Shown: positions 4,884 to 36,356 of the stretch, piece by piece
How positions within the stretch are numbered: position 1 is the stretch's first letter
Layout of the letters: each line of letters begins with the position of its first letter
Assembly (NCBI GenBank): GCA_025457915.1
Contig: JALOTL010000017.1
Coordinates: 4,718 to 68,717 of the forward strand
Direction of reading: 5' to 3'
DNA: 64,000 nt
DNA from: Spirochaetota bacterium
GTDB lineage: Bacteria; Spirochaetota; UBA4802; UBA5550
The notes under the pieces: model-generated
What the model saw: the letters and a program-made list of their open reading frames with translations, nothing else
What the model was told of the DNA's origin: nothing
The model's database searches: none
Position numbers and translations under genes: made by a program

Positions 4884-4978
4884 TTTTTTCACCGAAAACT
4901 GTCATGCCGGGCGCAAAAAAAAGGGGAGGCCTTTCAGCCTCCCTTTTTACACGTCATTATTATCCGCCGGCTTTACGG

Positions 4979-5734
4979 CTACTTCTTCATGAAGAGCCCG
5001 ATCGCGAGCATCGTCTGGTTCCTGTCCTCTATATTAAGCGCCATCTCCAGTCCGCCGGCATCGATGTTCATGTTGATGGCCTCCTTGGTCAGCCTGAGCC
5101 CCATGCGGTTCTTTGAAAGCAGTATCTTCGCGTAGTCCTTCGCGGTGTCGAGCAGCTTGTCCTTTTCGACTATCTTAGTCACCAGCCCGAGCTGCATGGC
5201 CTCCTCAGACGACATGAATCCGCCGGTGTACATGAACTCGTATGCCCTTCCCGTCCCGATCATCCTGGGGAGGAAATAACTGCAGGACATGTCGGCCCCG
5301 CCGAGACCGATATTTATATAAGCCGCGCTGAACCTCGCGTCCGGAGAGATGATCCTTATGTCCGATGAAAGCGTGAAGCTGAACCCCTGCCCGGCTGCCG
5401 CGCCGTGCACCGCGCAGATTATCGGTTGCGGGGCCCTTCTCATCGCCAGGTTGATCCTAGCGAGCCTTGCCTGGAACCTGTAAAATTCATGGGCGTTCAT
5501 TGTCGGCGCCTTGGCCAGGGTCTCCTTCATGTCCAGCCCCGCGCAGAAGCCTTTTTCCCCGTTGCCCTTCAGGATGATGACCGCCGTTTCGAGATCATAA
5601 AGCCTCTCCTTCCAGAAATCCTCGAGCTCTTCCATCATGAGATGATTTACGGCGTTGTATGACTCAGGCCTGTTGAGGGACAGTATGCCGAGCCCGTTTT
5701 CTATAACCTCGTATTGAATCGTCTTGTAATCCAT
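4979..5734 (-). CDS. Enoyl-CoA hydratase/isomerase (crotonase family)
   Basis: Crotonase fold signatures are present (GNGEKGFCAGLDM, the oxyanion-hole segment AVHGAAAGQGFSF) and the length is 251 aa. Confidence 0.85.
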   Translation of the reverse strand: MDYKTIQYEVIENGLGILSLNRPESYNAVNHLMMEELEDFWKERLYDLETAVIILKGNGEKGFCAGLDMKETLAKAPTMNAHEFYRFQARLARINLAMRRAPQPIICAVHGAAAGQGFSFTLSSDIRIISPDARFSAAYINIGLGGADMSCSYFLPRMIGTGRAYEFMYTGGFMSSEEAMQLGLVTKIVEKDKLLDTAKDYAKILLSKNRMGLRLTKEAINMNIDAGGLEMALNIEDRNQTMLAIGLFMKK

Positions 5735-16802: not shown

Positions 16803-19424
16803 ATGAAAAAAACCGCGCTGCTTGTTTTTTTAACGGCGATAATATCAGCCGCCGCCTATTCCGACTCCCTCGTCGAGAACAAGGGGCAGTGGTGGAAAAT
16901 AAGACTGCAGAAACTCACCGAAGAAAAAAAATCCCTGTCGGCCGTAAAACCGGCATTCGCGCCGGAGGTCCTGGCCGCTGTTGACTTCGAGATCGCTGAA
17001 ACGGAAGCTATAATACCAATTTATGAAGCGTATAAAACCGACAGGGGTTCCCTGACGGATGAAACCAGGGAATTTTCAGAAAATGAAACGGCCTCGATAA
17101 CGGACGGGATATTCGTTCCGATGTTCAACCTTTATTACCTGGACTCGGTGCTTTCGGATATCAACGGCGCGGCCGGGGTCGAGAAGGCGAAAAAGACGGC
17201 CGTTGAAAAAATCGCCTCCATGCTTTCCTCAAGGTTCGGAAGGGAATGGGCGGGACTGTCGGCCACGATAGCCGCGGAAGACATCACGCAGAACGAATGG
17301 AAAAACATGGGAGCGGAGCTGTTTATTTCCGCGGCCGCAGACGGATCATCCGCGGCCATGAAAATAAACAGGGGCATTGTCCTTTCCGCGGTCCGCGGAA
17401 AGGCCTGCTCGCGGACGAACATGAAGGACCTCGCCTCTCTCGCTGAAAAGACCGCCGCCGAACACCTGAAAAACAGGGACCTGGCATCAGACATCCCGTC
17501 GGGGGCCGGCAAAATCGAAGAATCCGGCACCTGGATGTCAGTCGAGGCCCGGCTGAAGAAGGATATGGACAACTACGGAAAAATAATGGGCATGCTTGAC
17601 GGCCCGGACAGGTCGAGCCCCAGGTGGGTGAGATATTACAGCTCCCGGCTCAATGAACTGGAATCAGCGGTCTTCAACGGGCGCCACGGGAGCTATCTCT
17701 ATGACGGCGGCCCGGGTGAAACCTACGACCCTTCAAAAAACAAGGCGGCAAGCGTGATGACCATACCGGAATCGCCTGACTTCGATACCGCCCTTTCCGA
17801 GATCGACAGGACCAGGAAGGCTATCATTCATTCTACAAACGGGTCCGAGGAGGCAGGGTTCTTCAAAGAGGCCGAAACGAAATTCAGCAATATCATTTCC
17901 AGGCACACCGGAGCGGCAAAGGACGCGTTCGATTCCGAAGAAAGAAAGACGCTTGAGTCCGGCGGAACGGACAGGGCCGCCAACGCCGGGCAGTTCGCGG
18001 AATCGAAGCGAACCTTTGAAAAAAGGACCGGTCTTCTCGGGAATTACGTGAAAAAGAACATGGAATTTATCAGGTGGCTGTCATCTGCCAGGAAAACCGA
18101 TCCGGAAGGCGTAAAGGCCCTGTACTCCGCCAGGACGGCAAGGGCGGATTCGTGCGTGAAATTCATTGCAGGGCTTTTCAAGTCCGCGTCGTCCGCGGTC
18201 TCGCCGGGGCTCCAGGCCGTTAAAAAAATGGAAACGGCCCTCAGGAAAACCGATTCCTTTTTCAGGCTCATGGCCGCCGGTGCTGAAATCGACAAGAGTC
18301 TGCCGAAACAGCTCGGGCCGAGAAGGGTAAGGGAGATGAGGGAGATGAAGGCGGCGCTCCTGAACGGGCTCAAGATCGCCAGGATGGACATGCGCAGGCA
18401 CCTGTCCGAGCTTGAATCCAGATACGGGTCGCTGGCAAAATCATCGAAGGAATCATACTCATCCCTCAGGGAAAAAATCATCCAGAACGAGATCGATGCC
18501 CTTTATAAAATAGCCTCGAATTATTCCAGGGTCTACGGCTCCCTCAATTACGCAGAGGACGCGCTCATGCTTTATTTCGACAGGTTCAATTCCCTGAAAC
18601 ACGCGGCTGAAACGGGCGCGGCGTCCGCCGATCTCGACAATGCGGTAAAAAAAGGTTCCGTGCTCCAGGCCATAGGCGGGTTCGACAGGAACAGGATCCA
18701 GAGAGAAAGGCAAGCGAAGGAATTCCTGGCGAGGGAAACAAAGGCGTCCCACGCGAGGCTGGTATCGGCTGCGGCCGGCTGCAGGAAAGGGCCCGCGCAT
18801 CCGAAAGACCTCCCGACGAAAGAGGAATTCGATTCGCTGACCGCTCCGCTGAAAAGAACATTCGTCGTGAGGATAGCCTCCTGGAGGATGTGCGAGTCCA
18901 ACCTGGAAGAAATCGACAGGAAGGCCGCGAAGCTTCTGGCTGACACGGTCCACAGGAAGGCCTGGGCCGGGGACAGGAACGGGACGAGGGACAGGACCTC
19001 CCCGGGGGGAATGGTCATACGGCTTTCCGATCCGGCCGTGACGTTCGAGCTCCCCGCGGGGCTCACGGAGGGAACCGTAACGGACCTGGACAGGGAGAGC
19101 GGCGTGGTGAAATCATTCGCGAGCAGGGACAGGGAATCGGTGGTCAGCCTCATATTGGTTAAAACCGCGAAACCTGACCCGAAGCTTGCGATGGAAAGCT
19201 GGATGAAGAAGAAGGGCGTAAAGGCCGTCAAGGAACGATGGGGAAAAAACGACGGCAGGGAGTATTTCTGGACCATATCAAGGGACGGCGACAAAAACAT
19301 CCTGGAGACCTATTCCTTTCCCGGCAGCGGTTGGGCGATAATCGTCGCCGGAAAAACAACCAGGGAAAAATATTCCCTCTTCAGGGAAAAGCTGGACGCG
19401 ATAGCCGGTTCGCTGAAGAACTGA
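16803..19424 (+). CDS. Large secreted/periplasmic protein of unknown function (873 aa)
   Basis: It has an N-terminal signal peptide (MKKTALLVFLTAIISAAAYS), is predicted mostly alpha-helical and is rich in Ala/Lys/Glu. No known motif was recognised. Codon usage matches the host. Confidence 0.5.
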   Translation: MKKTALLVFLTAIISAAAYSDSLVENKGQWWKIRLQKLTEEKKSLSAVKPAFAPEVLAAVDFEIAETEAIIPIYEAYKTDRGSLTDETREFSENETASITDGIFVPMFNLYYLDSVLSDINGAAGVEKAKKTAVEKIASMLSSRFGREWAGLSATIAAEDITQNEWKNMGAELFISAAADGSSAAMKINRGIVLSAVRGKACSRTNMKDLASLAEKTAAEHLKNRDLASDIPSGAGKIEESGTWMSVEARLKKDMDNYGKIMGMLDGPDRSSPRWVRYYSSRLNELESAVFNGRHGSYLYDGGPGETYDPSKNKAASVMTIPESPDFDTALSEIDRTRKAIIHSTNGSEEAGFFKEAETKFSNIISRHTGAAKDAFDSEERKTLESGGTDRAANAGQFAESKRTFEKRTGLLGNYVKKNMEFIRWLSSARKTDPEGVKALYSARTARADSCVKFIAGLFKSASSAVSPGLQAVKKMETALRKTDSFFRLMAAGAEIDKSLPKQLGPRRVREMREMKAALLNGLKIARMDMRRHLSELESRYGSLAKSSKESYSSLREKIIQNEIDALYKIASNYSRVYGSLNYAEDALMLYFDRFNSLKHAAETGAASADLDNAVKKGSVLQAIGGFDRNRIQRERQAKEFLARETKASHARLVSAAAGCRKGPAHPKDLPTKEEFDSLTAPLKRTFVVRIASWRMCESNLEEIDRKAAKLLADTVHRKAWAGDRNGTRDRTSPGGMVIRLSDPAVTFELPAGLTEGTVTDLDRESGVVKSFASRDRESVVSLILVKTAKPDPKLAMESWMKKKGVKAVKERWGKNDGREYFWTISRDGDKNILETYSFPGSGWAIIVAGKTTREKYSLFREKLDAIAGSLKN

Positions 19425-20135: not shown

Positions 20136-20294
20136 TTATGGGATACTGCATTATACTGATATGAAAAGGCGTGTCAATAATAGAAAGTAGCTTTTAGATG
20201 TCTTTCCGGGTACGATAATTAAAAACCCTGTAATTGACCCCGGCATGCAGCGACAGACCGGGGCCTTTAATAATCAAGCCTGATTTATTTTTTT

Positions 20295-20521
20295 TTATGG
20301 GAACCTCTATAAATCAGATTTTTCATTATAAAACCGCTGAAAAAATCTGATGGGTGATCACAAAAACTACCGTTTTTGTGCCTACCATAGGGCGCCAGTA
20401 TTGAAAAAACCGGTTTTTTTGTTTGTTTTAAAATGAAAAAGCTGGTTTTTGTGACTGCCCTAATTTAAACATTGAAAGTGCCCACAAGGGAACTCATGAT
20501 TTGATTATTAGAGGCTTCCTT
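20295..20521 (+). repeat. MITE-like structured intergenic repeat, copy A (with a roughly 115 bp internal insertion)
   Basis: The left end TTATGGGAACCTCTATAAATCAGAT and the right end TGATTTGATTATTAGAGGCTTCC are inverted. It shares TTTTTCATTATAAAACCnCTGAAAAAA and TAATTTAAACATTGAAAGTGCCCACAAGGGAAC almost verbatim with the copy at 63541-63657. Confidence 0.7.
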
Positions 20522-20626
20522 TTAAAGCAAACTGCTGTTTGAATGATCGGGATAATTAATAAAAACATGAATCACATGAGGTCTGCCGATTAATTATCTT
20601 TTAATTTTTCAAAAAAAAAGCTTGAA

Positions 20627-20667
20627 CTATTCCTTGATTAGTCAATATTTGACTTATCAAGGAATAG
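20627..20667 (+). promoter_or_regulatory. Nested perfect palindrome, candidate MarR autoregulatory operator
   Basis: CTATTCCTTGAT TAGTCAATATTTGACT TATCAAGGAATAG forms a 12-bp perfect outer arm around an inner AGTCAA/TTGACT palindrome. It ends 16 nt before the marR start codon. Confidence 0.55.
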
Positions 20668-20682
20668 GAGCATTCAAACCGC

Positions 20683-21102
20683 ATGGATGACAGGCTGCTT
20701 TTTCTCATGTCAAAGGCCCAGTATGTATTAAAAAATTATCTTAAAAAGGAATTTAAATCCGGCGGCATTGAACTGTCCGCCGCGCAGATAGGGATACTCT
20801 TCGCTTTAAAAAATAAAAACGGACAGTCAATGAACGAACTGGGCCGTATCATTTCCATCGATAACGCCGCAATCACGCGGCATGTCGACGCGCTTGAACG
20901 GGAGGGCTCTGTTAAACGCCTTCCCGACAGGAACGACCGGAGGAAAAATCTTGTCATCATAACGCGCAAGGGACTGGCGGAGGCTGAAAAATCCGCGGTC
21001 ATCGCCAGGCGGGTCAACGAAATGATCAAGGAAGGTTTTAGTGAAGATGAAATCAACGTTTTTAAGGCGGTATTCAACAGTTTTTTAAAAAAATTTATTT
21101 AA
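20683..21102 (+). CDS. MarR-family transcriptional regulator
   Basis: It is 139 aa with the winged-helix region SAAQIGILFALKN...MNELGRIISIDNAAITRHVDALEREG. Confidence 0.8.
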   Translation: MDDRLLFLMSKAQYVLKNYLKKEFKSGGIELSAAQIGILFALKNKNGQSMNELGRIISIDNAAITRHVDALEREGSVKRLPDRNDRRKNLVIITRKGLAEAEKSAVIARRVNEMIKEGFSEDEINVFKAVFNSFLKKFI

Positions 21103-21125
21103 CATGGATCTCCGGAGGTTAATCA

Positions 21126-21584
21126 ATGAGTAGAGCATTATCATCCTACAATGTCCTGAACCGGCTTCCTTTCGGAAAATTTTTATTTTCAAAAGCGGTA
21201 TGCTTTACCGCACCGTATTTCAGATCGATCAAACCGCGTTTCGTGGAACTGAAACCCGGCTACTGCGAAATAAAAATGAAAAAGCGCAGGGCCGTATTGA
21301 ACCATCTGAAAAGCGTGCACGCGATCGCCATGTGCAATCTCTGCGAACTTGCCGGCGGCACCGCGCTTGACGTTACAATCCCCGGACACATGCGCTGGAT
21401 CCCGCGCGGCATGCAGGTAAAATACCTGAAAATGGCCAAAACGGACCTGATGGGGACCTGTACAATACGGAACGATGAAGTGCAAAAACCGGGATCGGTT
21501 CCGGTAACCGTGCATGTCACGGACAGGAACGGCATAGAGGTAATGACCGCGGTCATCGATATGCACATCACCGAACGTAAATGA
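21126..21584 (+). CDS. Hotdog-fold thioesterase-like protein (PaaI/YiiD-C-like; DUF4442-type)
   Basis: It is 152 aa with the pattern HAIAMCNLCELAGG typical of the hotdog thioesterase superfamily. The family assignment is from memory. Confidence 0.45.
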   Translation: MSRALSSYNVLNRLPFGKFLFSKAVCFTAPYFRSIKPRFVELKPGYCEIKMKKRRAVLNHLKSVHAIAMCNLCELAGGTALDVTIPGHMRWIPRGMQVKYLKMAKTDLMGTCTIRNDEVQKPGSVPVTVHVTDRNGIEVMTAVIDMHITERK

Positions 21585-21843
21585 TCAGATGATGCTTATT
21601 ATATCATGGCCCGTCGTTATCTTTCCATTTCTTAAAATAATATGACCGCCGGCGCCCTGATTCATTGATGCCGTCGAGGCCATGGAAAGCAAAACCGGAC
21701 CGGATTTCTATTTGACATAATATTACCGTACTGTAACAAGTTCATAAAGGGTACCGCAGGGAAGACTCCCTGAACAGAAGCGCGGCGTTTTCATTCTGCG
21801 GGTTATATTTTATACGATTAAAGATTAACGGAGCCTGTGATAT

Positions 21844-22395
21844 ATGAAAATCCTTATTCTAAACGGCAATCCCGATGCGGGCGACAGGGTCCTTGAAGGC
21901 TATATGGCCGCGCTAAAAGAGCGGCTTGATGAATCCGGTCATCAAACCGATCTTGTCAGCCTGCGCGAAAAAAAAATCAGGCCCTGCACCGGGTGTTTCG
22001 GCTGCTGGATTAAAACGCCGGGCACCTGCATCATACCCGACGACGCGATCGGCATTGCCGGGAAATACATTTCGTCCGACATGGTGATACTGGCGTCGCC
22101 CATGGTGAACGGTTATTTTTCATCCATGCTGAAGAACGCTATAGACAGGAATATCCCGGTCATGCATCCCCACCTCGAGGAGGTGGACGGCGAAGTGCAC
22201 CACCTGAAGAGGTACGACAGCTACCCTGACATCGGCATCCTACTCAAGCCCGAACAGTCCACGGATGAAGAGGATATCGAGATCGCGAAAGACCTGTTCA
22301 GGCGCATGAGCATAAACATGAGGACAAATCTGAGGTTCATAGAATTCACGGACAGACCTGCTGCGGAGGTTGCGGATGCAGTTGACATTCATTAA
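21844..22395 (+). CDS. NADPH-dependent FMN reductase family flavoprotein with a Cys cluster (iron-sulfur-flavoprotein-like)
   Basis: MKILILNGNPD is a flavodoxin-like start, and CTGCFGCWIKTPGTC is as in Isf-type proteins. Confidence 0.7.
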   Translation: MKILILNGNPDAGDRVLEGYMAALKERLDESGHQTDLVSLREKKIRPCTGCFGCWIKTPGTCIIPDDAIGIAGKYISSDMVILASPMVNGYFSSMLKNAIDRNIPVMHPHLEEVDGEVHHLKRYDSYPDIGILLKPEQSTDEEDIEIAKDLFRRMSINMRTNLRFIEFTDRPAAEVADAVDIH

Positions 22396-23032
22396 CGGCT
22401 CCCCCAGGGGGGAAAAGGGCAATACGGCAAAACTGATGGACAATTTCGTGAAAGGGTTCCTCGAGACGCCCGGCAACAAATGCGCGGTGGAATACATCGT
22501 GAAACACAGGAAAAACCCGTCCGTTCTGAAAGAGATATTCTACGGATCCGAAAACGTGATAATCGGGTTTCCGCTTTACGCGGACGCCATGCCCGGCAGC
22601 GTCAAGGAATTCCTTGACGCAATAATTCCCGCACCAGCCGGAGCAAAAATACCCTCACTGGGATTCATGTCTCAGTGCGGATTTCCCGAGACGGGGCACC
22701 TGAGGTATGTCGAGCGCTATCTCGAAAAATTCACGAAACGGCTCGGCGCGGATTATCTCGGCTCCATCATGAAGGGCGGCGGCGAGGGCCTGCACATGCA
22801 GCCGAAGTTCCTCGTGGAAAAATTCTTCAACGGCCTGCACTTTCTCGGCAAAAAATTCGGGGAGACCGGCAAGCTCGACCGGGACGACCTGGACCGGTTC
22901 GCGCGGCCCGAGCACCTTACGCCGGAACAGATCAACGGCATTATCCCCTTCATCAACAAGGCATTGTGGGACGAATGGATGAAGGAAAACGGCGCTCTCG
23001 AAAAAAGCTTCGACAGACCGTATAAAAAATAG
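22370..23032 (+). CDS. NADPH-dependent FMN reductase family flavoprotein
   Basis: LTFINGSPRGEKGNTAKL and GFPLYADAMPG are flavodoxin-like-fold signatures. It overlaps the upstream gene by about 26 nt. Confidence 0.7.
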   Translation: MRMQLTFINGSPRGEKGNTAKLMDNFVKGFLETPGNKCAVEYIVKHRKNPSVLKEIFYGSENVIIGFPLYADAMPGSVKEFLDAIIPAPAGAKIPSLGFMSQCGFPETGHLRYVERYLEKFTKRLGADYLGSIMKGGGEGLHMQPKFLVEKFFNGLHFLGKKFGETGKLDRDDLDRFARPEHLTPEQINGIIPFINKALWDEWMKENGALEKSFDRPYKK

Positions 23033-23139
23033 AATTATCGCCGGATACACGAAGAGGATCTTCTGCATCAGTCACGGGCCACGCAACCGGTAACGGCGCG
23101 CCTTCAATAACCGCGACGAATCCAGTGAATTGCATCACC

Positions 23140-23562
23140 TCATTTTATGATCCATATATTGTGGCCGCAATATTTGCATTTCGTCAGATAGACGTGCGTC
23201 TCCGACCGCCTGAAGTAATTGTCCCCGAATTCCGACCCCTGATAATGATCAAACAGCTCACGTTTGCCTTTCGGGAAAAACCGGCGGCAGGTCGGACAGC
23301 GGAGGGACGTGATCAGGGATTTGATCAATATCAATAATAAAAGAAAGGCCCAGAATATTCCGACAATAACCAAATACCTGACATGGTAGTTCTTTGCGAC
23401 CTCAATAATGACAATCCATATTATGGCCTGAACGGTAAACAATCCCAGGAATATCAGGGAATATTTGAACGCCCTCAGGCCCCTCTTCACCTTGAGATCC
23501 ATAGCCGCGTCGTATTCAGCGCGCAGCATGTCCCTTCTGCTCATATTGTTTTTGTCAGACAT
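23140..23562 (-). CDS. Small membrane protein with a C-terminal zinc ribbon (paralog family member 1)
   Basis: Two TM helices are followed by LRCPTCRRFFPKGK...THVYLTKCKYCGHNIWIIK (CPxC...CxxC). Confidence 0.5.
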   Translation of the reverse strand: MSDKNNMSRRDMLRAEYDAAMDLKVKRGLRAFKYSLIFLGLFTVQAIIWIVIIEVAKNYHVRYLVIVGIFWAFLLLLILIKSLITSLRCPTCRRFFPKGKRELFDHYQGSEFGDNYFRRSETHVYLTKCKYCGHNIWIIK

Positions 23563-23608
23563 GTTTTACTCCATGATGGATATTTTCAACCGATGCCGAT
23601 AGACGCCT

Positions 23609-24076
23609 TTATTTTAAAACCCATATGATATGACCGCAATATTTGCATTCCGTCCAATAGACATGCGTGGTTGATGATCTGAAATAAGAATCTCCACCGC
23701 TGCTGATACCGATGTCAGTGCCTTCATAAGAGGTATATTTTTCCAGTTTACCCTTTGGGAAGAACCGCCGGCATTTCGGACAGCGGAGGGACTTAAATAC
23801 TCCGGCCCCGGTTAAAACAAATAAAACAATAAATATGACGGTCATGACAAGGGACGGCAGTAAAGCATGAGACGCGAAAGAGTGGACCCGCAATCCTGCG
23901 ATTTTAATGAAAGACTCCTGGGCGAATATATAAAGAACAATATTTATTGTTATCAATATGAAAGAAAGGAACAATGAGCGCATTACCCCGCCCATCTGTT
24001 TTTGATCATTTTCAGCCATTTCCTCCATCGCCCTGCGATAATCCTCAAAAGATACTTTTGTTTTATTATCCGGCAT
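23609..24076 (-). CDS. Small membrane protein with a C-terminal zinc ribbon (paralog family member 2)
   Basis: Two TM helices are followed by LRCPKCRRFFPKGK...THVYWTECKYCGHIIWVLK. It is near-identical to member 1 in the ribbon. Confidence 0.5.
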   Translation of the reverse strand: MPDNKTKVSFEDYRRAMEEMAENDQKQMGGVMRSLFLSFILITINIVLYIFAQESFIKIAGLRVHSFASHALLPSLVMTVIFIVLFVLTGAGVFKSLRCPKCRRFFPKGKLEKYTSYEGTDIGISSGGDSYFRSSTTHVYWTECKYCGHIIWVLK

Positions 24077-24251
24077 CGTTTGCTCCTTTGTTTTATGTAA
24101 TTACTTATTTTAAAATCATTTATTCAGCACAATAAGTTATACATGTTTTGAAATGCGGTTTATACTGTAAAAATCAGGCACGCCGCTTCATATCAGGGCC
24201 AGGCGGCACAATGGGCCTGATGTTAAGCAACCGCGATCATAAAAAGGCATT

Positions 24252-24851
24252 TCAGCGCGCCCATGTTTTCAAACAATAGCGGCAGCGGTAAGTGCGGCGG
24301 AACACTCCGTATTCCTCCTTTACAACTGCCACGCCGCCGTAAATGGTGTTCACGAGCATCGGAGAAGTCGCCGTACCCGTCCGCTCTACCAGTATGAGCT
24401 GGGCGGCGAACAATTTACGGCAATGGGGACATTTATAAAACCGATACGTAAAAACAAGCGCAGCCGCGATAAGCGCCCCGATCACGCTCCAGCCCAGTAC
24501 AAGATTCACGATTGAGAGAAACATTATGCCGAAACTTCCGATCAACATGTAGACAAGGATGGCCCCGATGGTCTGGTGCGTGCGCAGGAAAAAGGTCGAC
24601 CATTCGTTTTTGTGGCCGCTCAATATCGAACGCAGAACGGCGATGCATACGAGGATGACCATTACACCGGGCAAAAGCGCCATCGCGGCCTTTGCCGAAG
24701 CGTTTGGATCCGGAAACGCCGTCATGCAGGGCAATAGCGACAGGCCGAGCAGCAGCAATCCTCCTATGGCGCCGAACACGTAACCCACCACACGGAACAC
24801 CGGGTCGTTGACTTCCGTCTTCATTTCATAGCCTGATTGTTGAGTTCCCAT
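24252..24851 (-). CDS. Membrane protein with a C-terminal zinc ribbon (divergent paralog, member 3)
   Basis: Four TM helices are followed by YKCPHCRKLF...TYRCRYCLKTW. Confidence 0.45.
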   Translation of the reverse strand: MGTQQSGYEMKTEVNDPVFRVVGYVFGAIGGLLLLGLSLLPCMTAFPDPNASAKAAMALLPGVMVILVCIAVLRSILSGHKNEWSTFFLRTHQTIGAILVYMLIGSFGIMFLSIVNLVLGWSVIGALIAAALVFTYRFYKCPHCRKLFAAQLILVERTGTATSPMLVNTIYGGVAVVKEEYGVFRRTYRCRYCLKTWAR

Positions 24852-25331
24852 ATTCCGGCCATCATCCTCCTTTAAGTTTAATTTTTTTTATCAATTTGTT
24901 TCTTCATCAACTTCACGCAAAAGCCGCAAATGCAATGAAAAACATGACAGGTCCTTTTTCACTTAACGTCGCAGGCGCAAGAGACGCCAGCCGCAGAGAG
25001 CCGCTTAAACACATGAACATGTTCAAGCGTTATCCGGATAATTGATAACAAGCAAAATATAATATGTTTCTCCTCGATTGATTGCTATGAAATAAAGATT
25101 TTATGGTGCTCAGGCAAGGATGTCAAATTAATATTGACTAAATATGGTATTTATACCCAAAAGAGAGGCACACAGGCATGGATTAATTTTAAGCAGTCGA
25201 TAACTGATCAATGTTTTTCACGGAGGTTTTTTGTTTAATATATTCTGACCTCGTTGACAATTCTCCGTACTTCCGAAACCATCTCTGCACGGAAAATTCA
25301 ATGAGCAGCAAAAATAAACAAGTACAATACC

Positions 25332-26405
25332 ATGCCATATAAAAAAGCCATGATATACTACTGGAGCGGGACGGGCAATACTTTAAGAATTTCCAAATGG
25401 GCTTTTAATTTTCTTAAAAATAAATTATCCATCGTATCAATTTCATCTGTAATTAATTCAAATCCCGATACACAGACCATGGGAGAGAATACTCTTTTAT
25501 TGATAGCGATGCCGACCCATGGATTTACCGCGCCGTGGCAGGTAATTAAATTCTGCCTCCGTCTCCCGATGGGAAAAAAAACCGCTGCCGTGACGATCGC
25601 CAACGGCGCCGGCACCTACCCCGGATTTTATCTGCCCGGATTTTCCGCATCGGCGAATTCCGTCATTTCATTCATACTGCTCTTGAAGGGCTACAGGGTC
25701 AGGGGATTTATCGATATTGACATGCCCGGAAGCTGGCCGGCTTTCTGCCCGGGATTAAACAGGGAACATGCCGACCACTTTTTAAAAAATGCAAAAAGAA
25801 AAACGGAGGCGTTTATAAAAATCATCCTTTCCGGTGAAAAACATATAATCAACTTCCGGAATGTTTTAGAATTCATCTTCGGCATGCTGTTAATACCGGT
25901 TTCATTCGGTTATATAATTTTCGGCAGGTTTTTTTTCGCCAAACTGCAATTCGCGAATCTAAAGTGCAATTCATGCGGGACCTGCGCGGGGAACTGTTCC
26001 CAAAAAGCAATTCTAATGAAAGGAAAAGAGGGATTTAAAAAACCGTACTGGACATTCAAATGTGAAAGCTGCGGCAAGTGCATCAGCTATTGTCCGCAAC
26101 AGGCCGTGGAAACGGGACATTCAATGGCAATATTGATCTGGTACATTTTATCGCTCAGGGTTTCTTTTTATTTGATCGATTATTTTTTCCAGTCATCCGC
26201 AATCATTTCATTCTTGAAAAATAAATATATATTTAAACTCCTCAACTACATGTTTTATTTACTCACTATTTTCGTATGCTACTATGTGCTATATTATATG
26301 GTAAAGATACCGCTTTTAAATAAATTCTTTTCCATTACTTCAGGCACGCACTGGTGGAAAAAATATCATGAACCTTCCATAAAAATACAGGATTTTAAAT
26401 CTTAA
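25332..26405 (+). CDS. Flavodoxin-like / 4Fe-4S ferredoxin-domain protein with C-terminal membrane helices (low-GC, probably acquired)
   Basis: It has an N-terminal flavodoxin-like YYWSGTGNT, two Cys clusters CNSCGTCAGNC and CESCGKCISYCP, and a hydrophobic C-terminus. GC is about 35% against a host value near 58%. Confidence 0.6.
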   Translation: MPYKKAMIYYWSGTGNTLRISKWAFNFLKNKLSIVSISSVINSNPDTQTMGENTLLLIAMPTHGFTAPWQVIKFCLRLPMGKKTAAVTIANGAGTYPGFYLPGFSASANSVISFILLLKGYRVRGFIDIDMPGSWPAFCPGLNREHADHFLKNAKRKTEAFIKIILSGEKHIINFRNVLEFIFGMLLIPVSFGYIIFGRFFFAKLQFANLKCNSCGTCAGNCSQKAILMKGKEGFKKPYWTFKCESCGKCISYCPQQAVETGHSMAILIWYILSLRVSFYLIDYFFQSSAIISFLKNKYIFKLLNYMFYLLTIFVCYYVLYYMVKIPLLNKFFSITSGTHWWKKYHEPSIKIQDFKS

Positions 26406-26662
26406 AAATCTAATGAATCACCAATCCTGTTTTCAAAGATAAAACCTGTTCCTTCATGCTTCACGGAAATGTCTTTCTTTGTTCTGCTGATTTATAATTT
26501 TCAGCGGTCAGATCAATATTCCTTGGATTTTCCCGGATCAATTCTCATGGGGCTTTACAAAAGCAGGTTTTTTTACTTGATGATAATTTATTTTTTGAAT
26601 TGCATATTGCATGCATTCGGGTATTATTTGTAAGTATGTAAAAAAAAGCATCGAGGTGGACT

Positions 26663-27232
26663 ATGCATTTACCGGCATGGGTTCCTTTTTTTGGGCCGTT
26701 TTTTAATCGGCGGCGGGCGTGGCGCGAGCTCCCGGACCTGGCCAGGCGGTGGGGCATGCGGTTCATCGAAAGCGACATGAGGTATTCGTTCGGCTCCATC
26801 GACGGGACCCTGCAGGGGTACCCCGTGGTGATCCAGCCTGACATTCCCATGGTCTGGGTGAAGTTCAACCGAGGGATCGAGGATTTCCAGCTCATGATGC
26901 TCGACACCGGCCAGAAGCGCCGCAAGTATGACCTGGGGCATGCAAGGTTCGAGCAGGCGTTCAAAACGATGGAGCTCAGCCAGCGGCTGGCGGACACCCT
27001 GCGCGGCCGGGCGGACGTCTTCGACCGTGTGCTGGCGCTGCTGCGCCACCGGGTCGTTGCGATCAATCTGTCAAACCAGGGCCTTATCTGCAGCATGCAC
27101 AATCCGTTCCGAAGGCCCTGGGGCAGAAATATCGAAAGCGCAAACTATATCACAGTTAGCGACCTGGAGCGGCTTCTGCCGGAGATGATCGAGGTGGTAA
27201 GGCTTCTCGAATCGGTATTATCTCCCGGTTAG
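26663..27232 (+). CDS. Hypothetical protein (high-GC ORF inside the low-GC island)
   Basis: It is a 189 aa ORF with host-like codon usage. No motif was recognised. Confidence 0.35.
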   Translation: MHLPAWVPFFGPFFNRRRAWRELPDLARRWGMRFIESDMRYSFGSIDGTLQGYPVVIQPDIPMVWVKFNRGIEDFQLMMLDTGQKRRKYDLGHARFEQAFKTMELSQRLADTLRGRADVFDRVLALLRHRVVAINLSNQGLICSMHNPFRRPWGRNIESANYITVSDLERLLPEMIEVVRLLESVLSPG

Positions 27233-27403
27233 CTTCCTGTGGCGAACAAATTCCCCCTCCACTGAAGGCCGATTGATCCGGCTGCCCGGCGCACATGATC
27301 TTTCTGAAGCTCACCGCAGCAAGCGCAGCGCATGACGTCGTGTTATTTGCAGTTGCCCCTGCCCTTCTTTTTTATCTTCAAAAAAAATATATTTAAATTA
27401 AAA

Positions 27404-27850
27404 TTATTCGCCGATACTTATAAGCTGTTTGCATATTTTATCTCCATTTAAAATTGATTTTTCCAAATCAACCTCTATAGTTCTATTAAACAGCGTTTCA
27501 AATATTTTCCTGGTATACCCCATGGTGCAGTTGCATAAATACGGATTACTGACTCCTTCTTTAACCATAGGGCAGGTGCACTCTTCAAAAACAAGCGTGA
27601 TTTTATTACCCTCTTTCATGAGCCCCGGCGTATCATAATATTGCGTTTTAAAAGCCGCGAATAATTTATCCAGGTCCTTATCATTCATATGTTCATTTCT
27701 GATTTTTACAGCTCCTTCAAGAATTGCGGATGTCTTTGAGCATTCCCCGCCGCACACATGCAATAATTCGATTCCTTTATTGCCATCCAGTTTTGATATC
27801 TCATGCAAAATTGAATTTATCCATTGAATGATCCTGTCCTTGTTGTTCAT
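27404..27850 (-). CDS. Small cysteine-rich protein (possibly ATC-hydrolase-like family)
   Basis: It is 148 aa with HVCGGECSKT, ECTCPMVK and YLCNCTMGY. It is low-GC. The family assignment is from memory and uncertain. Confidence 0.4.
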   Translation of the reverse strand: MNNKDRIIQWINSILHEISKLDGNKGIELLHVCGGECSKTSAILEGAVKIRNEHMNDKDLDKLFAAFKTQYYDTPGLMKEGNKITLVFEECTCPMVKEGVSNPYLCNCTMGYTRKIFETLFNRTIEVDLEKSILNGDKICKQLISIGE

Positions 27851-28184
27851 CAGATATATCCTTATTGTAAATATTCCATAACTGGTTATTATATATTATA
27901 CTTAAAGATTACTATCATTATAACGACCACGAATGTTGATTGTCTTTGCTATATGTCCGTGTACGCAAGGGGCGTGCCATTTTCATACAGCGTTCCCGGC
28001 GCATGCTGCGCGGCCGAAGACAATGTAATGACCCGTGCCGGGCTTGTTGAAGCAGACCGCAGGGAGTGACTTGTTGTTCGACGCTGGTTCGCAATACTTA
28101 CAAAAAGTTGTCGAAGCCATTGCTCGCCCGGCATCAGCTTATTCTTGTTCGTTAGACGGCGCAGTCAATTAAAGTATAAAACCA

Positions 28185-28832
28185 TCATTTAATCAATACT
28201 TTGTCCCACCCGGTTTTTTTCCAATATTTCTTATTTAAAATATTTATTAAATAACCCGGAGTGGATCTGTTTCCCAAACCCGAATTAAACGCCTGGTCAA
28301 TGTCGTCAATTACTTCAATTGGTCCAAGAATATTTTCATTATGTATGATATGATCCGATTTACCATCCCACTTGATACCCCATGCGACATTTAACGGACG
28401 ATAGAGCGCATCAAATGATTTACTGTCCAGACTCGGGTCAGCATATGTCCATTGCCCGTCGATAAGCATTTGAACAAAATAATGATAATACGGATTATTA
28501 ATAAAAAATACGTCATTGCCCAGCAATGGCTTTAAAAAATTCTTGTTTAACGGACGTTTAACAATTCTGCCGGGAATGGAATATTTTCTGCTTATTGCCG
28601 CCAGGAGAAGGGCTTTATTCCAGCATGCGCCATACTTCTTTCGCATTGTTTCAGACGCTTTAACTTTAATCGCATCGGCACAGAGAGGCAGGCTGTCACG
28701 GACAAAATTAAAAATTTCGACAGCAGTGGAACTTATTGATTTGGAAAGGTTGATGGGTAAATTTTCAAAAACCGGGTTATTAAAATCGCAATAATATGTT
28801 TCATTCAGGAACATTTTATTATTTTCCGACAT
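28185..28832 (-). CDS. Transglutaminase-like superfamily protein (putative cysteine peptidase fold)
   Basis: GACWNKALLLAAISRKYSIPGR matches the G-x-C...GIPAR transglutaminase-core Cys motif, and a downstream His/Asp region (YHYFVQMLIDGQWTYADPS) follows. It is low-GC. Confidence 0.55.
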   Translation of the reverse strand: MSENNKMFLNETYYCDFNNPVFENLPINLSKSISSTAVEIFNFVRDSLPLCADAIKVKASETMRKKYGACWNKALLLAAISRKYSIPGRIVKRPLNKNFLKPLLGNDVFFINNPYYHYFVQMLIDGQWTYADPSLDSKSFDALYRPLNVAWGIKWDGKSDHIIHNENILGPIEVIDDIDQAFNSGLGNRSTPGYLINILNKKYWKKTGWDKVLIK

Positions 28833-28986
28833 ATATCCCTCTGTTTATTATTATCTATGCGCCGCCACGCATGGCGGCTTAAACCACAAAAAATAACGGG
28901 CCAATTTCGAATAGCATATACATTATCACCCACCCTGATCACCGCATCCATGATTTGCTGTTTACCGCACCAGATAAATATCATAT

Positions 28987-29499
28987 TTATATTGAATACG
29001 ATTTTTCAAATGAAACAATATTTATCTTTTCATCTTCACAATATTTTTCGCCGGTTTTCTTAAAACCCAATCTCCGATAAAACCTGATGCTTCCCTCTGA
29101 AAAAGACGGCGTTCCGGTCGTCAATTTATACATCTCAGGAAACCACATTTCAATCTGTTTTATCGCAAACGTACCGGCGCCTTTATTTTTATAATCATTA
29201 TCGATAAATATCTGCACGAGCTCCCAGTGGTATAAATTTTTGCCGTTTTTATTAATTTTACCGCGTAATGCTATTATTACGGCCCCGATGATCCTGGATT
29301 TATACATGATTTTATGGTATACGCCTTCTTTCATTGAATGAACATGCCAGTCCGGGTCGTCATAATTTTTCGGCCCTCCGGGTTTGCCGTCTTTATGCAG
29401 AATCATTTCCTGGTCAAAAGATTTCCTGCAAATATCGGCCATTTCAACGGCATCGATAAAATCTGCTCTTTCTAATTTCAGGTCGTTTGTGTTTATCAT
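28987..29499 (-). CDS. GNAT-family N-acetyltransferase
   Basis: It is 170 aa with an acetyl-CoA-binding-like RIIGAVII...NKNKGAGTFAIKQ. It is low-GC. Confidence 0.6.
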   Translation of the reverse strand: MINTNDLKLERADFIDAVEMADICRKSFDQEMILHKDGKPGGPKNYDDPDWHVHSMKEGVYHKIMYKSRIIGAVIIALRGKINKNGKNLYHWELVQIFIDNDYKNKGAGTFAIKQIEMWFPEMYKLTTGTPSFSEGSIRFYRRLGFKKTGEKYCEDEKINIVSFEKSYSI

Positions 29500-29629
29500 G
29501 ATTTAACAATCATTTCATGGAATAATTCATACATGCCAATGAATATTCTGTTAGAAGCCGGGACAACGGATAAATATAATATGATGGATAAATGCACCTT
29601 GGTATTCCAATAAACACTTTAATCCGGTT

Positions 29630-30469
29630 TTAACGAAGAATTACCCATGGATGTTTGCAAAAGCGACAACGAACTTCATAAACATTGACGCGCTGACTGG
29701 TGTGAACAGGAGAACCTCCCGTACCAAGCGACCCGATCGGCATGCTTGGTCCGCTATAACTATCAACGCATTCAAGTTTCACCCGGGCAAAAAACCGTCT
29801 GCATTTCGGGCAGCGCCTGGGCATAACAACAGCCAAAATGATACTGACAATGACAAGAGCGGTCCACCCCGCTATTACATACCGAAAATAATCAGTATTA
29901 AACGCAAAATAAGTACCCATCATTCCCCCAAAGATCATTAATGCGATCAATGGATAAAATTTCATTTCACGTTTTTGTTTTTCCGCGATTTTAGAGATTT
30001 CGTCTGATACGTTGAGCTTAGGCGGAGGATTGTCCGGGTCTATGGTTCTATCGAAAAGGTCCTTATGATATATCAGCATCTTTATTAATTCCGGATTGAA
30101 CGCCTGAAGCAGATCAACTGCCGCCCATCGAAGTCTGAGCGGCTCATCTTCTTCATCGCAAACACCGATAAGCCTTTTTAATTCCTCAGGGACTTTATCC
30201 CCGATGACTGGTAAAGCATTAACAGCAAGCAATCTAACTTCAAGGTTGCGTTCTTTGGAACATGCAACATCAAGCAGCGCGCCTGCGGCCCGTTGATTGC
30301 GCCAAGGATCATTTGTCGTTTTAAGCCATTCATAGAGTTCTTCAACATGCTTCGGAAACTCTGTCGGATCATCGGTAGCCAGTCCCGCCTTTATGGAATC
30401 GATATCATTCATAAAGCACCTCGCATAATAACAAGTTATTTCCCCATGGGCGAACAGGACGGCCGTCAT
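29630..30469 (-). CDS. HEAT/PBS-lyase-like repeat protein with a TM region and the same C-terminal zinc ribbon (paralog family member 4)
   Basis: It has N-terminal HEAT-like repeats (AAGALLDVACS...RLLAVNALPVIGD), two TM helices, then RRCPKCRRFF...VYEVRCRFCKHPWVILR. Confidence 0.5.
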   Translation of the reverse strand: MTAVLFAHGEITCYYARCFMNDIDSIKAGLATDDPTEFPKHVEELYEWLKTTNDPWRNQRAAGALLDVACSKERNLEVRLLAVNALPVIGDKVPEELKRLIGVCDEEDEPLRLRWAAVDLLQAFNPELIKMLIYHKDLFDRTIDPDNPPPKLNVSDEISKIAEKQKREMKFYPLIALMIFGGMMGTYFAFNTDYFRYVIAGWTALVIVSIILAVVMPRRCPKCRRFFARVKLECVDSYSGPSMPIGSLGTGGSPVHTSQRVNVYEVRCRFCKHPWVILR

Positions 30470-30768
30470 CTACACACACTGGAAACGTCGTTTCATATAA
30501 CGCTGAAGGCATGCCCGCCGTTGCCGGATGTTCGATATATATAATAGAGCCGGGGGTTTATAAAATCAAGCTGCTTTTACGCGAGGGGAAAGGGCAATTT
30601 AATGGAAATTTTTCCGGACTTGCCTGGAATTTGTATTTACATGACCCGCAACCTGTGTATATAAGAAGCGTCCAGTCTCTTTGACCGGACCCCCCGGGGC
30701 GCAGTTTCCTGATTATTAAAGACAGCGGCTGCTCCCTTCAACAAACTCAGCGATATTCAAGGCGGGCC

Positions 30769-31527
30769 ATGGATAAAGACATCGAAAAGCTTATATCGAA
30801 AGCCGAAGGGAAGAAATGGTGGAATAAATTCTTCCCGCGGTCCAAACAGCATAAAAAGGCGGCAAGGCCCGAAAGACCGGCACCGACGAACGCCGAACGC
30901 TACGAGGTTTTCATGACGACCACCTATAACTCGACATTCCGGTTTCTTTCAAAGTTCTTCTATGTCGCTTCGCTTGCATTGATCCTGATAGTCCTTCTGT
31001 CGAAAGAAACCCATGACGGCTCGGAGGCATATATCTTTCTCCTTTTTTTCATGCCGCTCCCCGCGTACCTGCTGGTCAACCTGCTCCGGTACATACATTT
31101 CCTCGGTTGGAGGAAAAGGCTCCCCTTCAGGCTTGAGGGATGGGAGGACCTGGCGAACACCAATGATCTCGACAGGATTTCCTGGCGCAACAACTGTACC
31201 ATTTCCATAATAATCCGGGACCCCGACCCCCTGCAGACCGATGCGATCAACGCCGCCCTTGCCATCTTTACCAGGGAGGCCGAAAAACAGATTTATACGG
31301 CCGACATGAAAGACAAAAACAGAATCAGGATTAAACCGTTTTCTTACGGATCCCTGAAGGCCGCGGGAAGCGCCAACGTAGACATAATAAGGCTGATACG
31401 GAAACTCTGCGAGGGCGATCTCTCAATGCTCGCGAGAAAATTCGAAAACTTCGAGGCGGTGAAACTCGGCATAAGCCGTGAAACATACAGCGTTCTGGAG
31501 CATGATACAGATTTTGTCGCCGACTGA
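30769..31527 (+). CDS. Hypothetical membrane protein
   Basis: It is 252 aa with two hydrophobic helices (about residues 60-110). No motif was recognised. Confidence 0.4.
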   Translation: MDKDIEKLISKAEGKKWWNKFFPRSKQHKKAARPERPAPTNAERYEVFMTTTYNSTFRFLSKFFYVASLALILIVLLSKETHDGSEAYIFLLFFMPLPAYLLVNLLRYIHFLGWRKRLPFRLEGWEDLANTNDLDRISWRNNCTISIIIRDPDPLQTDAINAALAIFTREAEKQIYTADMKDKNRIRIKPFSYGSLKAAGSANVDIIRLIRKLCEGDLSMLARKFENFEAVKLGISRETYSVLEHDTDFVAD

Positions 31528-31949
31528 CGCAATCGGCCGCGGATTACACTTCGCGCATTCGGCCCGGGCCGTCCGCGGCACAGAAGGCATCAGTGAAATT
31601 TCAACTTCATGAATGGCGCGGATATATTATTTTTCCAGTTGAATCCCCAGAAAAAAATTCCTAACATACAAAGATGGGCCGTATCGTTCCTGAAACATCC
31701 AATCCGTACATCCGGTAGATTATCGCGGACAAATATTAGACTGCTCGTATAATTGCAAATGACAAAATAGAGATATGGACGCTATTTGAAGGCCGCGTCT
31801 GTTGTGTACCGGTTTCGTCCGGGGCAATTGCATATAAAGTCCCCGGCGTATCCGACGACGACGCAGGCGGTGAGGCGACATTTGCTGAGCCTGTCGAAGC
31901 AAGCCCGGGGAGCGAAGCGGCTATGCTGTGCCATGTGCCGCTGCAGGTT

Positions 31950-32543
31950 CTAATCTAAAATTTCAATACAGCCATAATCTGTTTCCTGAAGGAATTCATT
32001 TATTTCTTCAATATTAAATTCTTCAGGATCAAAATCATTCCCAAGCCAATCAATCATATCTTGATATTGATCATTTTTAGGATTATTTATTATTGTCAAA
32101 AGTTCAGTATAACCATAAGGTCCACCGCAATCTTCAGGGGGACAATTTCGTTTTCCGTCAATACAAATTGGATATTGATTCCCTTTTTCGCTCGGTAATA
32201 TCTTTTCAAGAACAATTGTATGTTCCCAGCCGTCACCAAAATCATATTGATACATGAACCTGGCTTTTGGCACATTGCATAATGAATTTAACTTAATTTT
32301 TCTATAATCAATTATTTCTATAGATGAATCATCATCCGGTAAAGAATATGATTTTTTATTAATTACAAATTGATGCAAATGAGAATTTGTCCAACCCATA
32401 ATGGTTTGTATTACTTTATGTAAATCTGTTAACTTAATATCTGAATCAACCAGGAATCTCCTCCATATTATTGGCTTAATATGATCAAGAGTGATTTTGA
32501 GTTGAAATACATCCTCAGATTTAATTTTTTTTATAGATGCCAT
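31950..32543 (-). CDS. Plasmid pRiA4b ORF-3-like family protein (mobile-element-associated passenger gene)
   Basis: It is 197 aa with the characteristic YDFGDGWEH and CGGPYGY motifs. It is low-GC. Elsewhere this family is linked to IS/plasmid contexts (from memory). Confidence 0.55.
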   Translation of the reverse strand: MASIKKIKSEDVFQLKITLDHIKPIIWRRFLVDSDIKLTDLHKVIQTIMGWTNSHLHQFVINKKSYSLPDDDSSIEIIDYRKIKLNSLCNVPKARFMYQYDFGDGWEHTIVLEKILPSEKGNQYPICIDGKRNCPPEDCGGPYGYTELLTIINNPKNDQYQDMIDWLGNDFDPEEFNIEEINEFLQETDYGCIEILD

Positions 32544-32710
32544 AATTTTCCTTCACAAATTTAGTTAAAATGCAAGGGCAAATAACATTCCCCGGGCAGG
32601 CAACGTTATTCGCCCTTGTATCGTCTGCTGGTAACTTGTTGTGAAAGTACTGCGTCAGCAAGCCGTCCCATTCATTGAATTACGATCCAGAAACTCTCGA
32701 TATCCCCTTT

Positions 32711-34996
<2,286 letters not shown>

Positions 34997-35086
34997 TCAA
35001 AAATTAAGCCTTTTTAATATTCTTTTTGCATTTTTCACACACGCCATGTTAGACGAAGAAATTGGGCGATCTTTATAGAAATATTT

Positions 35087-35803
35087 TTATAGCTTATAAA
35101 ACATCCAATCCGGCATATATTTTAAAAATATTGCAATTATGGCCCACCTTTTAGTGATGTATGCTTTATCTCTTTTCTTTTTTATTACGGAAAATATTTG
35201 CCGTGCAGCAATTGTTGGAGGCATAACCCAGAATAATCCTTCTCCTTTTGCCATATCAGTATCAACAAAACCTGGTTTTATATCCGTAATGTATATTTGC
35301 AGTTTTGCTTTTTTTATTTTGCTTCTAATTCCTTCCATATAATTTGAAATAAAAGCTTTTGATGCATCATATGCTGGCGCAACTGGATCTCCTCTTAACG
35401 CTCCTATTGATGATATACCGACAATATGGCCTTTGCCTTTTTTTAAAAAATATTTAACAGCAATATTTAATGTCTTAGTAAATCCAAGAACATTTACATC
35501 TATTGTTTCTTTTTCTTTCTGCCAATCTAATTCTTCATTAAGATGTCCTATTCCGGAAGAAATAATTAATAAATCGATTCCTTCTAATTCAATAATTAAT
35601 TCATTTATGTTTTTTTCAATTTCATCGAGTTTTGAAATATCAATATATTTTACGAATGAAAGATTTGGTAATTCCTGCTGTAATTTTTTTAATAAATTAA
35701 CTCTACGTGCCGCAAGGCCAACAATATAATTTTCTTTGGATAATATTTTTGCGAGTTCCATTCCAATTCCGGAACTTGCTCCTATGATTATTGCTTTTTT
35801 CAT
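35087..35803 (-). CDS. Short-chain dehydrogenase/reductase (SDR) family oxidoreductase
   Basis: The start MKKAIIIGASSGIGMEL is the TGxxxGxG motif, and the YxxxK active site is YDASK. It is low-GC. The start at 35803 follows an RBS AAGGA. Confidence 0.8.
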   Translation of the reverse strand: MKKAIIIGASSGIGMELAKILSKENYIVGLAARRVNLLKKLQQELPNLSFVKYIDISKLDEIEKNINELIIELEGIDLLIISSGIGHLNEELDWQKEKETIDVNVLGFTKTLNIAVKYFLKKGKGHIVGISSIGALRGDPVAPAYDASKAFISNYMEGIRSKIKKAKLQIYITDIKPGFVDTDMAKGEGLFWVMPPTIAARQIFSVIKKKRDKAYITKRWAIIAIFLKYMPDWMFYKL

Positions 35804-36356
35804 TAAATTATTTTTCCTTAACAAAAAGTTCGCCAAATTTTTTCGTCTAACTACTTCATGTCCGCATTGCGTCATTGCATCTGATTGAGGCTGATGGACG
35901 AATTGCGGATATAAATTGATATTGAGCGATAAAGCGTATTGCGTATAAGAGATTATTGATTCCACGGAAAGTCAATCTTAAAACACACCATTATAGAATT
36001 CATCTAAGGGGCTTTTTATATTAATGAGTTCTTTATTGCCTGCGTGAGTGTAAATTTCAGTCGTCCCGCAGTTCGCGTGGCCCGGCGGTCCGATATCATC
36101 ATTGAACGGACTAAAATAAGCCCTCAATGGTTTATCGGCATCCCCAGTAGATATCAACGATCCGCGGGCTGAAAATGAAAAAAAATTTTTAGCGGAATGG
36201 AAGCCGGAACCCGGTCTCTTCCTCCTTTCTTCCTCCTATGTTGCTCCTATGTACCTCCTTTGTCGGTCTTTGTCATAAAACCTTATTTTTTTTTAAAATA
36301 CGCAGCGGACCCGATCATCGCCTTCAGATTCATGCATTTCCGCAAAAGGACACGTT

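Follow-up and report, generated by a model that had tools for sequence, protein, structure and literature searches.

A rare, unnamed family of predicted membrane-anchored zinc-ribbon proteins in a Spirochaetota genome

The 64,000-nucleotide stretch of Spirochaetota DNA that we analyzed (assembly GCA_025457915.1, contig JALOTL010000017.1, positions 4,718 to 68,717 of the forward strand; hereafter the window) encodes four proteins, A to D, that belong to a rare, unnamed and real family confined to uncultured lineages. All four share a module in which a predicted transmembrane (TM) hairpin leads directly into a C-terminal ribbon with four cysteines (Cys4), preceded by an N-terminal part that differs from one type to the next. 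The family is undescribed, yet a zinc ribbon joined to a membrane anchor is not in itself a new kind of protein. We suggest, with middling confidence, that A to D are stand-alone, lineage-expanded adaptors that are tethered to the membrane through this module. Neither a multi-gene system nor a link to defence was found around them.

A common anchor-and-ribbon module

An earlier note on this DNA had listed four open reading frames (ORFs) ending in the same module, and all four are present, as follows.

23140-23562, minus strand: gene A, an ORF of 140 amino acids (aa); predicted cytoplasmic N-terminal helix, 2 TM helices and C-terminal Cys4 ribbon
23143-23307, minus strand: ribbon of A (residues 86-140; isoelectric point (pI) 9.5, net charge +6)
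23609-24076, minus strand: gene B, an ORF of 155 aa; plan as in A; prototype of the B type, the most widespread form
23612-23791, minus strand: ribbon of B (residues 96-155; pI 9.2, net charge +5)
24252-24851, minus strand: gene C, an ORF of 199 aa; predicted 4-TM form with the divergent ribbon CPHCRKLFA...CRYCLKTW; distant, strain-variable subfamily
24255-24440, minus strand: ribbon of C (residues 138-199; pI 9.8, net charge +8)
29630-30412, minus strand: gene D, 260 aa (frame open to 30469, 279 aa); predicted HEAT-like N-domain, linker LFDRxxDPDNPPPKL, juxtamembrane helix, 2 TM helices and ribbon
29633-29821, minus strand: ribbon of D (residues 198-260 in the 260-aa numbering; pI 10.2, net charge +9)
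30023-30412, minus strand: HEAT-like helical N-terminal domain of D (HEAT_2 E 0.0036, under cutoff)

The ribbon reads [RK]CPxC[RK][RK]xF...C[KR][YF]C in A to D. When written as the regular expression CP.C[RK][RK].F-x(20-50)-C[KR][YF]C and run on the six-frame translation of the window, this motif matches four times, and not once in any of 30 shuffles. The four proteins align over the TM region and the C-terminal module, with the four cysteines, the proline after the first cysteine and one phenylalanine invariant. As judged by sequence comparison, A, B and D are clear homologues (BLASTP 3e-28 for A-B, with 62% identity across the 60-residue ribbon; 4e-14 for B-D; 1e-12 for A-D), and C is a distant member of the family (2e-5 for C-D). 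The ribbons of A and B also have two nucleotide repeats, D1 and D2, in common.

The proposal that A, B and C are three tandem paralogs therefore stands for the A-B pair; C is no recent tandem copy. It is only 16-20% identical to A and B, a profile made without C and its fragment P0012 scores it at only 23 bits, and it has orthologues of its own with the same 4-TM plan (P0040, 54% identical; P0043; P0048). The A-B duplication would be a local event that predates the split from a sister strain described below, and C and D would derive from older, separate subfamilies in a lineage that carries several scattered copies. For D, the start at 30412 is the most likely one, since both the public annotation (P0162, 260 aa) and an orthologue start there and GAGG precedes the ATG.

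Hydropathy predicts 2, 2, 4 and 2 TM helices for A, B, C and D, respectively. In C, three helices are clear and the fourth is WSVIGALIAAALVFTY; in D, one helix is clear and the first, weaker one falls below threshold and was assigned from an orthologue alignment in which it is conserved. The C-terminal tails hold 11-12 lysines and arginines versus 3-5 acidic residues, and the pI of the ribbons lies between 9.2 and 10.2. Cys4 sites and HEAT domains are expected in the cytoplasm. Because of this expectation, the even number of TM helices and the positive-inside rule, both termini are predicted to be cytoplasmic. The ribbon begins 2-4 residues past the last TM helix, which would place it against the inner membrane face.

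An AlphaFold2 model of B, with a predicted local distance difference test score (pLDDT) of 72.6, consists of two long helices joined by a 3-residue turn and followed by a beta domain. In a model of the ribbon alone (pLDDT 82.6), strands 21-33 and 39-52 form a long hairpin that is joined by strand 59-63, and this sheet carries the two Cys-x2-Cys knuckles; the model superposes on the NrdR ribbon at 1.8 Å across 40 residues. The four cysteines are invariant in alignments of 16, 14 and 24 sequences, and a ribbon of this kind would presumably bind a metal. In a set of 13 B-type proteins, conservation is highest in the knuckles (mean pairwise identity 0.67-0.69) and lowest in the outer loop (0.25), which is also variable in length. 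A and B in addition have a conserved motif in the N-terminal helix, K-[VI]-[ST]-F-E-E-Y-x-K-A-M-E-E. Thus, constraint falls on the predicted cytoplasmic side, and the short, poorly conserved outer loop argues against periplasmic sensing.

As the earlier note had described, the N-terminal part varies: A and B have a short helix there, C has two additional TM helices and D a HEAT-like domain. The HEAT assignment needs qualification for D itself, which scores 18 bits against the HEAT_2 cutoff of 27.7; it is supported through the orthologues of D, since HEAT_2 matches 5 of 14 (best E 1.4e-7). HEAT repeats are also fused to the module in distant relatives whose ribbons are C-like: P0086 (32.7 bits) and P0105 (34.4 bits) score above the HEAT_2 cutoff and P0143 (24.1 bits) falls just under it. 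A further distant relative, P0080, fuses the module to a Ser/Thr kinase. The anchor-ribbon module is thus found paired, more than once, with cytoplasmic heads for protein interaction or signalling.

Distribution and genomic setting

As the earlier note had supposed, no named family accounts for these proteins: A to D match no Pfam, NCBIfam, PADLOC or PHROG model at threshold. The best matches all fall below their cutoffs, for example DUF4153 (22.3 bits versus 27) and MJ0042_CXXC (13.4 versus 20.9). We rejected the weak DUF4153, DUF2207_C and PDC-M18B matches, which lie within TM helices and are not reproduced across members, and likewise 1z6m, the best match of the profile among Protein Data Bank sequences (E 0.011), a thioredoxin-like protein with a 29-residue local match to 'RCPxCRxxF'. 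A literature search found no description of the family.

A word-seeded profile search of 5.8 billion proteins returned 14 clusters, and an exhaustive hmmsearch of 1.84 billion representatives returned 154 matches at E<=1e-3, 31 at E<=1e-10 and 9 at E<=1e-30. Species-representative genomes contain 8 family loci and JGI/ENA metagenome records 9, with many of the related loci on short contigs; the source samples include anaerobic digesters and sediments (for example JGI 3300010429 and 3300037461). A single-sequence search with C matched C alone; it took the exhaustive profile search to recover the C-type relatives. The core family comprises three types, B/A (140-166 aa), D (250-290 aa, with a conserved N-domain and the linker given above) and the 4-TM C type, and its signature is [RK]CPxC[RK][RK]xF[PA] ... 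VY-x-T-x-C[KR]xC-x-H-x-W. Beyond about 1e-10 the matches trail off into many short proteins (85-130 aa) that have a single TM helix and the pattern 'RCPxCKKxFA...YxCKxCGHxW', and among 117 distant relatives there are only scattered weak matches to generic ribbons (Zn_ribbon_8, Zn_ribbon_3, Zn_ribbon_SprT).

Relatives are sparse and not restricted to this genome. The genome matches lie in metagenome-assembled genomes (MAGs) labelled Spirochaetia, Ca. Aegiribacteria, 'Patescibacteria', Edwardsbacteria, Zixiibacteriota, Cryptobacteroides and Bacteriovoracaceae; GCA_030634805.1 is one of the assemblies with a member. Among IMG/VR viral contigs, 97 pattern matches yielded no confirmed relative, and PHROGs gave no match below E 0.05.

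A 'Spirochaetes bacterium' MAG with MUD12_ locus tags encodes proteins identical to B and C (P0001 and P0002, the latter MUD12_12640), both annotated as hypothetical. The same genome has at least a fifth family member on another contig, the D-type P0166 (MUD12_06630), near insertion sequence (IS) elements; alcohol dehydrogenases and IS elements surround this second D paralogue. Orthologues of B, at about 52-86% identity, occur in MAGs labelled Spirochaetia and Aegiribacteria and on further metagenome contigs. The tandem B-A pair is specific to the present lineage, other genomes being single-copy within the DNA available.

A sister strain is represented by contigs from activated-sludge and other metagenomes (L007-L010 and L025), and its orthologue of A (P0003) is 91% identical. 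This strain retains the order MarR, DUF4442, flavoprotein, flavoprotein, A, B in synteny at 87.6% nucleotide identity. The ratio of nonsynonymous to synonymous substitution rates (dN/dS) between window and sister strain is 0.18 for A and 0.20 for B, so that both genes are under purifying selection, and both are preceded by ribosome-binding sites (GGAG about 9 nt 5' of the ATG in A, AAGGAG upstream of B). On another sister-strain contig, L021, two D-type paralogues of 261 and 255 aa (348-1133 and 4529-5296) lie within 5.8 kb and bracket a pair of 2-oxoacid:ferredoxin oxidoreductase genes.

The earlier note had placed the genes in an AT-rich accessory segment, a description that fits in part. 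The GC content is 0.442 across 20269-32700, compared with 0.55 and 0.53 in the flanks, and C lies in an indel hot spot; against this, A and B are syntenic in the sister strain. C is missing from the sister-strain locus L007, which keeps the B-A pair and has an unrelated 213-aa gene in place of C and the gene at 25332-26405 (window 24096-26274 versus L007 2594-3864). On the window side, the strain-specific replacement thus consists of C and a 357-aa flavodoxin-like/4Fe-4S membrane protein at 25332-26405, both of them within the hot spot. The DUF6144 gene (27404-27850) has no match in L007 either. We found no tRNA, Rfam match or long flanking repeat bounding an island around 20-33 kb.

The gaps between the genes are 46 nt for A-B and 175 nt for B-C, and two candidate transcription signals lie near C.

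25098-25126, minus strand: promoter-like site upstream of C (TTGACA-17-TAAAAT, 11/12 matches; from a consensus scan, not functional evidence)
24245-24262, minus strand: terminator-like hairpin and T run at the 3' end of C (from a consensus scan; such hairpins are no more numerous than in shuffles)

Given the unequal gaps and this terminator-like hairpin, itself a consensus-scan hit, B and A are probably carried on one transcript and C is probably transcribed separately.

We then considered whether the family genes belong to a multi-gene system, as the earlier note had proposed in calling them the best candidate for an undescribed one. At 13 independent loci, every ORF of 70 aa or more lying no farther than 7 kb from a family gene was entered into an all-against-all comparison, and no neighbour family is common to these loci except the family itself. 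No sigma factor adjoins any copy in the window or the 13 loci, and the Pfam-annotated neighbours at the 13 loci include no nuclease, toxin or recognised defence gene as partner. The contexts differ from locus to locus, with AraC, MalT-like and FecR genes in one, Toluene_X, TfoX and Mg-chelatase in another, and lectins and hydrolases in a third. In the window the neighbours are MarR, DUF4442, two FMN-reductase-like proteins, the flavodoxin/Fer4 membrane protein and DUF6144, and further a transglutaminase-like protein, a GNAT, PRiA4_ORF3 and KatG. A GNAT gene adjoins the D-type gene both in the window and in L024 and lies 8 kb off in L006; since GNATs are common, we judged this adjacency to be chance. 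PADLOC matched 0 of 10 window neighbours and 1 of 16 family members.

Several other features of the surrounding DNA were recorded. A near-perfect palindrome, ATTCCTTGATTAGTCAATATTTGACTTATCAAGGAAT, at 20627-20667 lies immediately 5' of the MarR gene (20683-21102) and is likely the MarR operator. An intergenic repeat of about 140 nt at 20385-20522 has a partial second copy at 63542-63655 (88-94% identity); it also occurs just downstream of the sister-strain D orthologue (L021 1203-1339, 85.6%) and in L022, L023 and L030, whereas the syntenic position of L007 lacks it. This repeat may represent a small mobile element, or one resembling a repetitive extragenic palindrome (REP) or a miniature inverted-repeat transposable element (MITE). 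Three plus-strand ORFs lack a recognised family: an 873-aa ORF at 16803-19424 has no Pfam match at E<=1e-3 and is 91% identical in nucleotide sequence in the sister strain (L007 8842-11463); a 189-aa ORF at 26663-27232, without a Pfam or PADLOC match, is kept in the sister strain (L007 1599-2210); and a 252-aa ORF at 30769-31527, likewise without a Pfam or PADLOC match, is predicted to have TM helices and is located upstream of D in divergent orientation. Farther along, KatG (32711-34957, GC about 0.55-0.58) adjoins a short-chain dehydrogenase gene (35087-35965) across which GC falls to 0.306 (35001-36000), a drop that may reflect foreign origin.

Possible roles of A to D

We suggest that A to D act as membrane adaptors or scaffolds and not as periplasmic sensors. 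The TM hairpin would serve as an anchor only, with the working surfaces in the cytoplasm, where the ribbon and the N-terminal module would together tether a ligand to the membrane. This ligand would most likely be a protein; a nucleic acid or an acidic lipid seems less likely. There is a precedent for such a role in the haloarchaeal protein CdpC, in which a zinc ribbon serves as membrane tether of the cytoplasmic FtsZ1 (bioRxiv 10.64898/2026.07.16.738847). Several points weigh against this proposal. The mechanism is deduced from the architecture of the proteins; the metal could be zinc or iron; the topology is a prediction, with the first TM helix of D under the hydropathy threshold; and most of the related contigs are short, so that partners acting in trans or encoded more than 7-10 kb away would escape detection.

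Alternatively, the proteins could be anti-sigma-like or transmembrane signalling proteins, an analogy drawn in the earlier note, in which the ribbon or the N-terminal helix would sequester a transcription factor and free it in response to an envelope or redox signal. ZAS anti-sigma factors are in general built in this way, with a cytoplasmic metal-binding domain tethered to the membrane; the distant relative P0080 carries a kinase, one homologue (L001) has a FecR-domain gene about 1 kb away and the MarR gene is 2 kb from A. Even so, this explanation seems unlikely to us, since none of the 13 loci has an adjacent sigma-factor gene, FecR occurs in one lineage only and an outer loop of 3-23 poorly conserved residues leaves no sensor domain. 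The proteins also lack HxxxCxxC, and their cysteines lie, by alignment and predicted model, in a beta ribbon and not in a helical domain.

Membrane-tethered redox proteins, with a rubredoxin-like Fe(Cys)4 site or a thiol switch linked to the nearby flavoprotein, Fe-S and catalase genes, are a further alternative that we hold to be quite unlikely. The CPxC...CxxC site has flanking aromatic residues, and its knuckles are 36-46 residues apart, not far from the spacing in rubredoxin. The window neighbours include the two FMN-reductase-like proteins, the flavodoxin/Fer4 membrane protein and KatG, and the D-type pair of the sister strain flanks the 2-oxoacid:ferredoxin oxidoreductase genes. However, anaerobes carry redox genes everywhere in their genomes, and none of the redox neighbours is common to the loci; nor is there a rubredoxin signal by sequence or fold, with no match to the Pfam rubredoxin model (PF00301) even at E<=1 and without the CxxCG ... 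CPxCG order of rubredoxin.

A bolder extension of the adaptor idea, which we would call a long shot, is that the module is a new portable docking or switch device whose heads (short helix, HEAT, kinase) are swapped so that each recruits a different client. Short forms such as A and B and the HEAT forms (D and P0166) might then cooperate in a signalling or stress network at the membrane that is particular to this lineage; in an anaerobe, this could be a release switch that responds to oxidants or zinc.

The earlier note had also likened the proteins to phage-exclusion factors; on this reading, a diversifying tandem set of small membrane proteins in a low-GC island would block phage DNA entry or trigger abortive infection. 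The lower-GC stretch, the strain-specific indel containing C, the multiple paralogues and the match of B to the PADLOC candidate PDC-M18B (E 0.003) are what such a set might offer, yet we consider the idea very improbable. The PADLOC match is weak, confined to the TM region and seen in a single member; the neighbours are metabolic or redox genes; the contexts of homologues are unrelated, and their Pfam-annotated neighbours include no recognised defence gene; no relative was confirmed on viral contigs and no PHROG match was significant; and selection on A and B is purifying, the ribbon being the most conserved part. Finally, that the genes are chance ORFs or decaying pseudogenes sharing cysteine pairs only, as short length and absent annotation might by themselves suggest, is refuted by the shuffles, the exhaustive profile search and dN/dS values of about 0.2, together with the ribosome-binding sites and the orthologues in MAGs of several phyla, and can practically be dismissed.

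If A to D are indeed membrane-tethered adaptors, they would represent an unnamed bacterial way to pin a small metal-binding domain and its ligand to the inner membrane, with a modular logic in which a fixed anchor and ribbon are combined with exchangeable cytoplasmic heads. Independently of function, the four invariant cysteines, the signature [RK]CPxC[RK][RK]xF[PA]...C[KR]xCxHxW and the three subfamilies define a clean family that deserves a database entry. Since nothing points to a defence or anti-sigma system, a false lead is also removed. The immediate impact is modest, because the family is rare, occurs in uncultured lineages only and offers no functional handle.

Comparison with known systems

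Generic zinc ribbons (Pfam clan Zn_Beta_Ribbon, with models such as Zn_ribbon_8 and Zn_ribbon_3; solved examples are the N-terminal ribbon of NrdR and domain III of TFIIS) have the same two CxxC knuckles and the three-stranded antiparallel sheet that is modelled for the present family. In contrast to these, A to D fall under the Pfam cutoff of every ribbon model; they have a long, variable hairpin insert of 20-35 residues, a ribbon welded to a TM helix and a signature of their own. NrdR and TFIIS are soluble, unlike the predicted TM-anchored A to D. The LITAF/SIMPLE-like ribbon (PF10601) is likewise Cys-rich and membrane-associated, and 3 of the 117 distant relatives match it weakly. The anchor of LITAF, however, lies between the knuckles, whereas here a polar segment separates the knuckles and the ribbon follows the TM helices.

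ZAS anti-sigma factors of the RsrA, RslA and ChrR type resemble the family in having a metal-binding cytoplasmic domain that is membrane-tethered in some cases (RslA type). They differ in that this domain is helical, with an HxxxCxxC motif, and is encoded next to a gene for an extracytoplasmic function (ECF) sigma factor. Neither feature is found in the A-D family, which has no conserved histidine three residues before CxxC and whose cysteines are placed in beta strands by the model.

Zinc ribbons appended to membrane stress proteins are common (PMC11237479), and a ribbon on the cytoplasmic side of a membrane-associated protein is seen in envelope-stress proteins such as Bacillus subtilis YdjL (band-7 with a C-terminal zinc ribbon) and PspC (N-terminal zinc ribbon) (PMC11237479). 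These differ in having band-7 or PspC domains and conserved psp- or lia-type operons, none of which occur in or around A to D. In Haloferax volcanii CdpC, which has two zinc ribbons, a ribbon again lies at the membrane and the metal site is needed to tether a cytoplasmic protein (bioRxiv 10.64898/2026.07.16.738847). Its attachment is by an amphipathic helix instead of a TM hairpin, it is archaeal and it has a long disordered linker; family scans, the sole comparison made, detected no sequence relationship to A to D.

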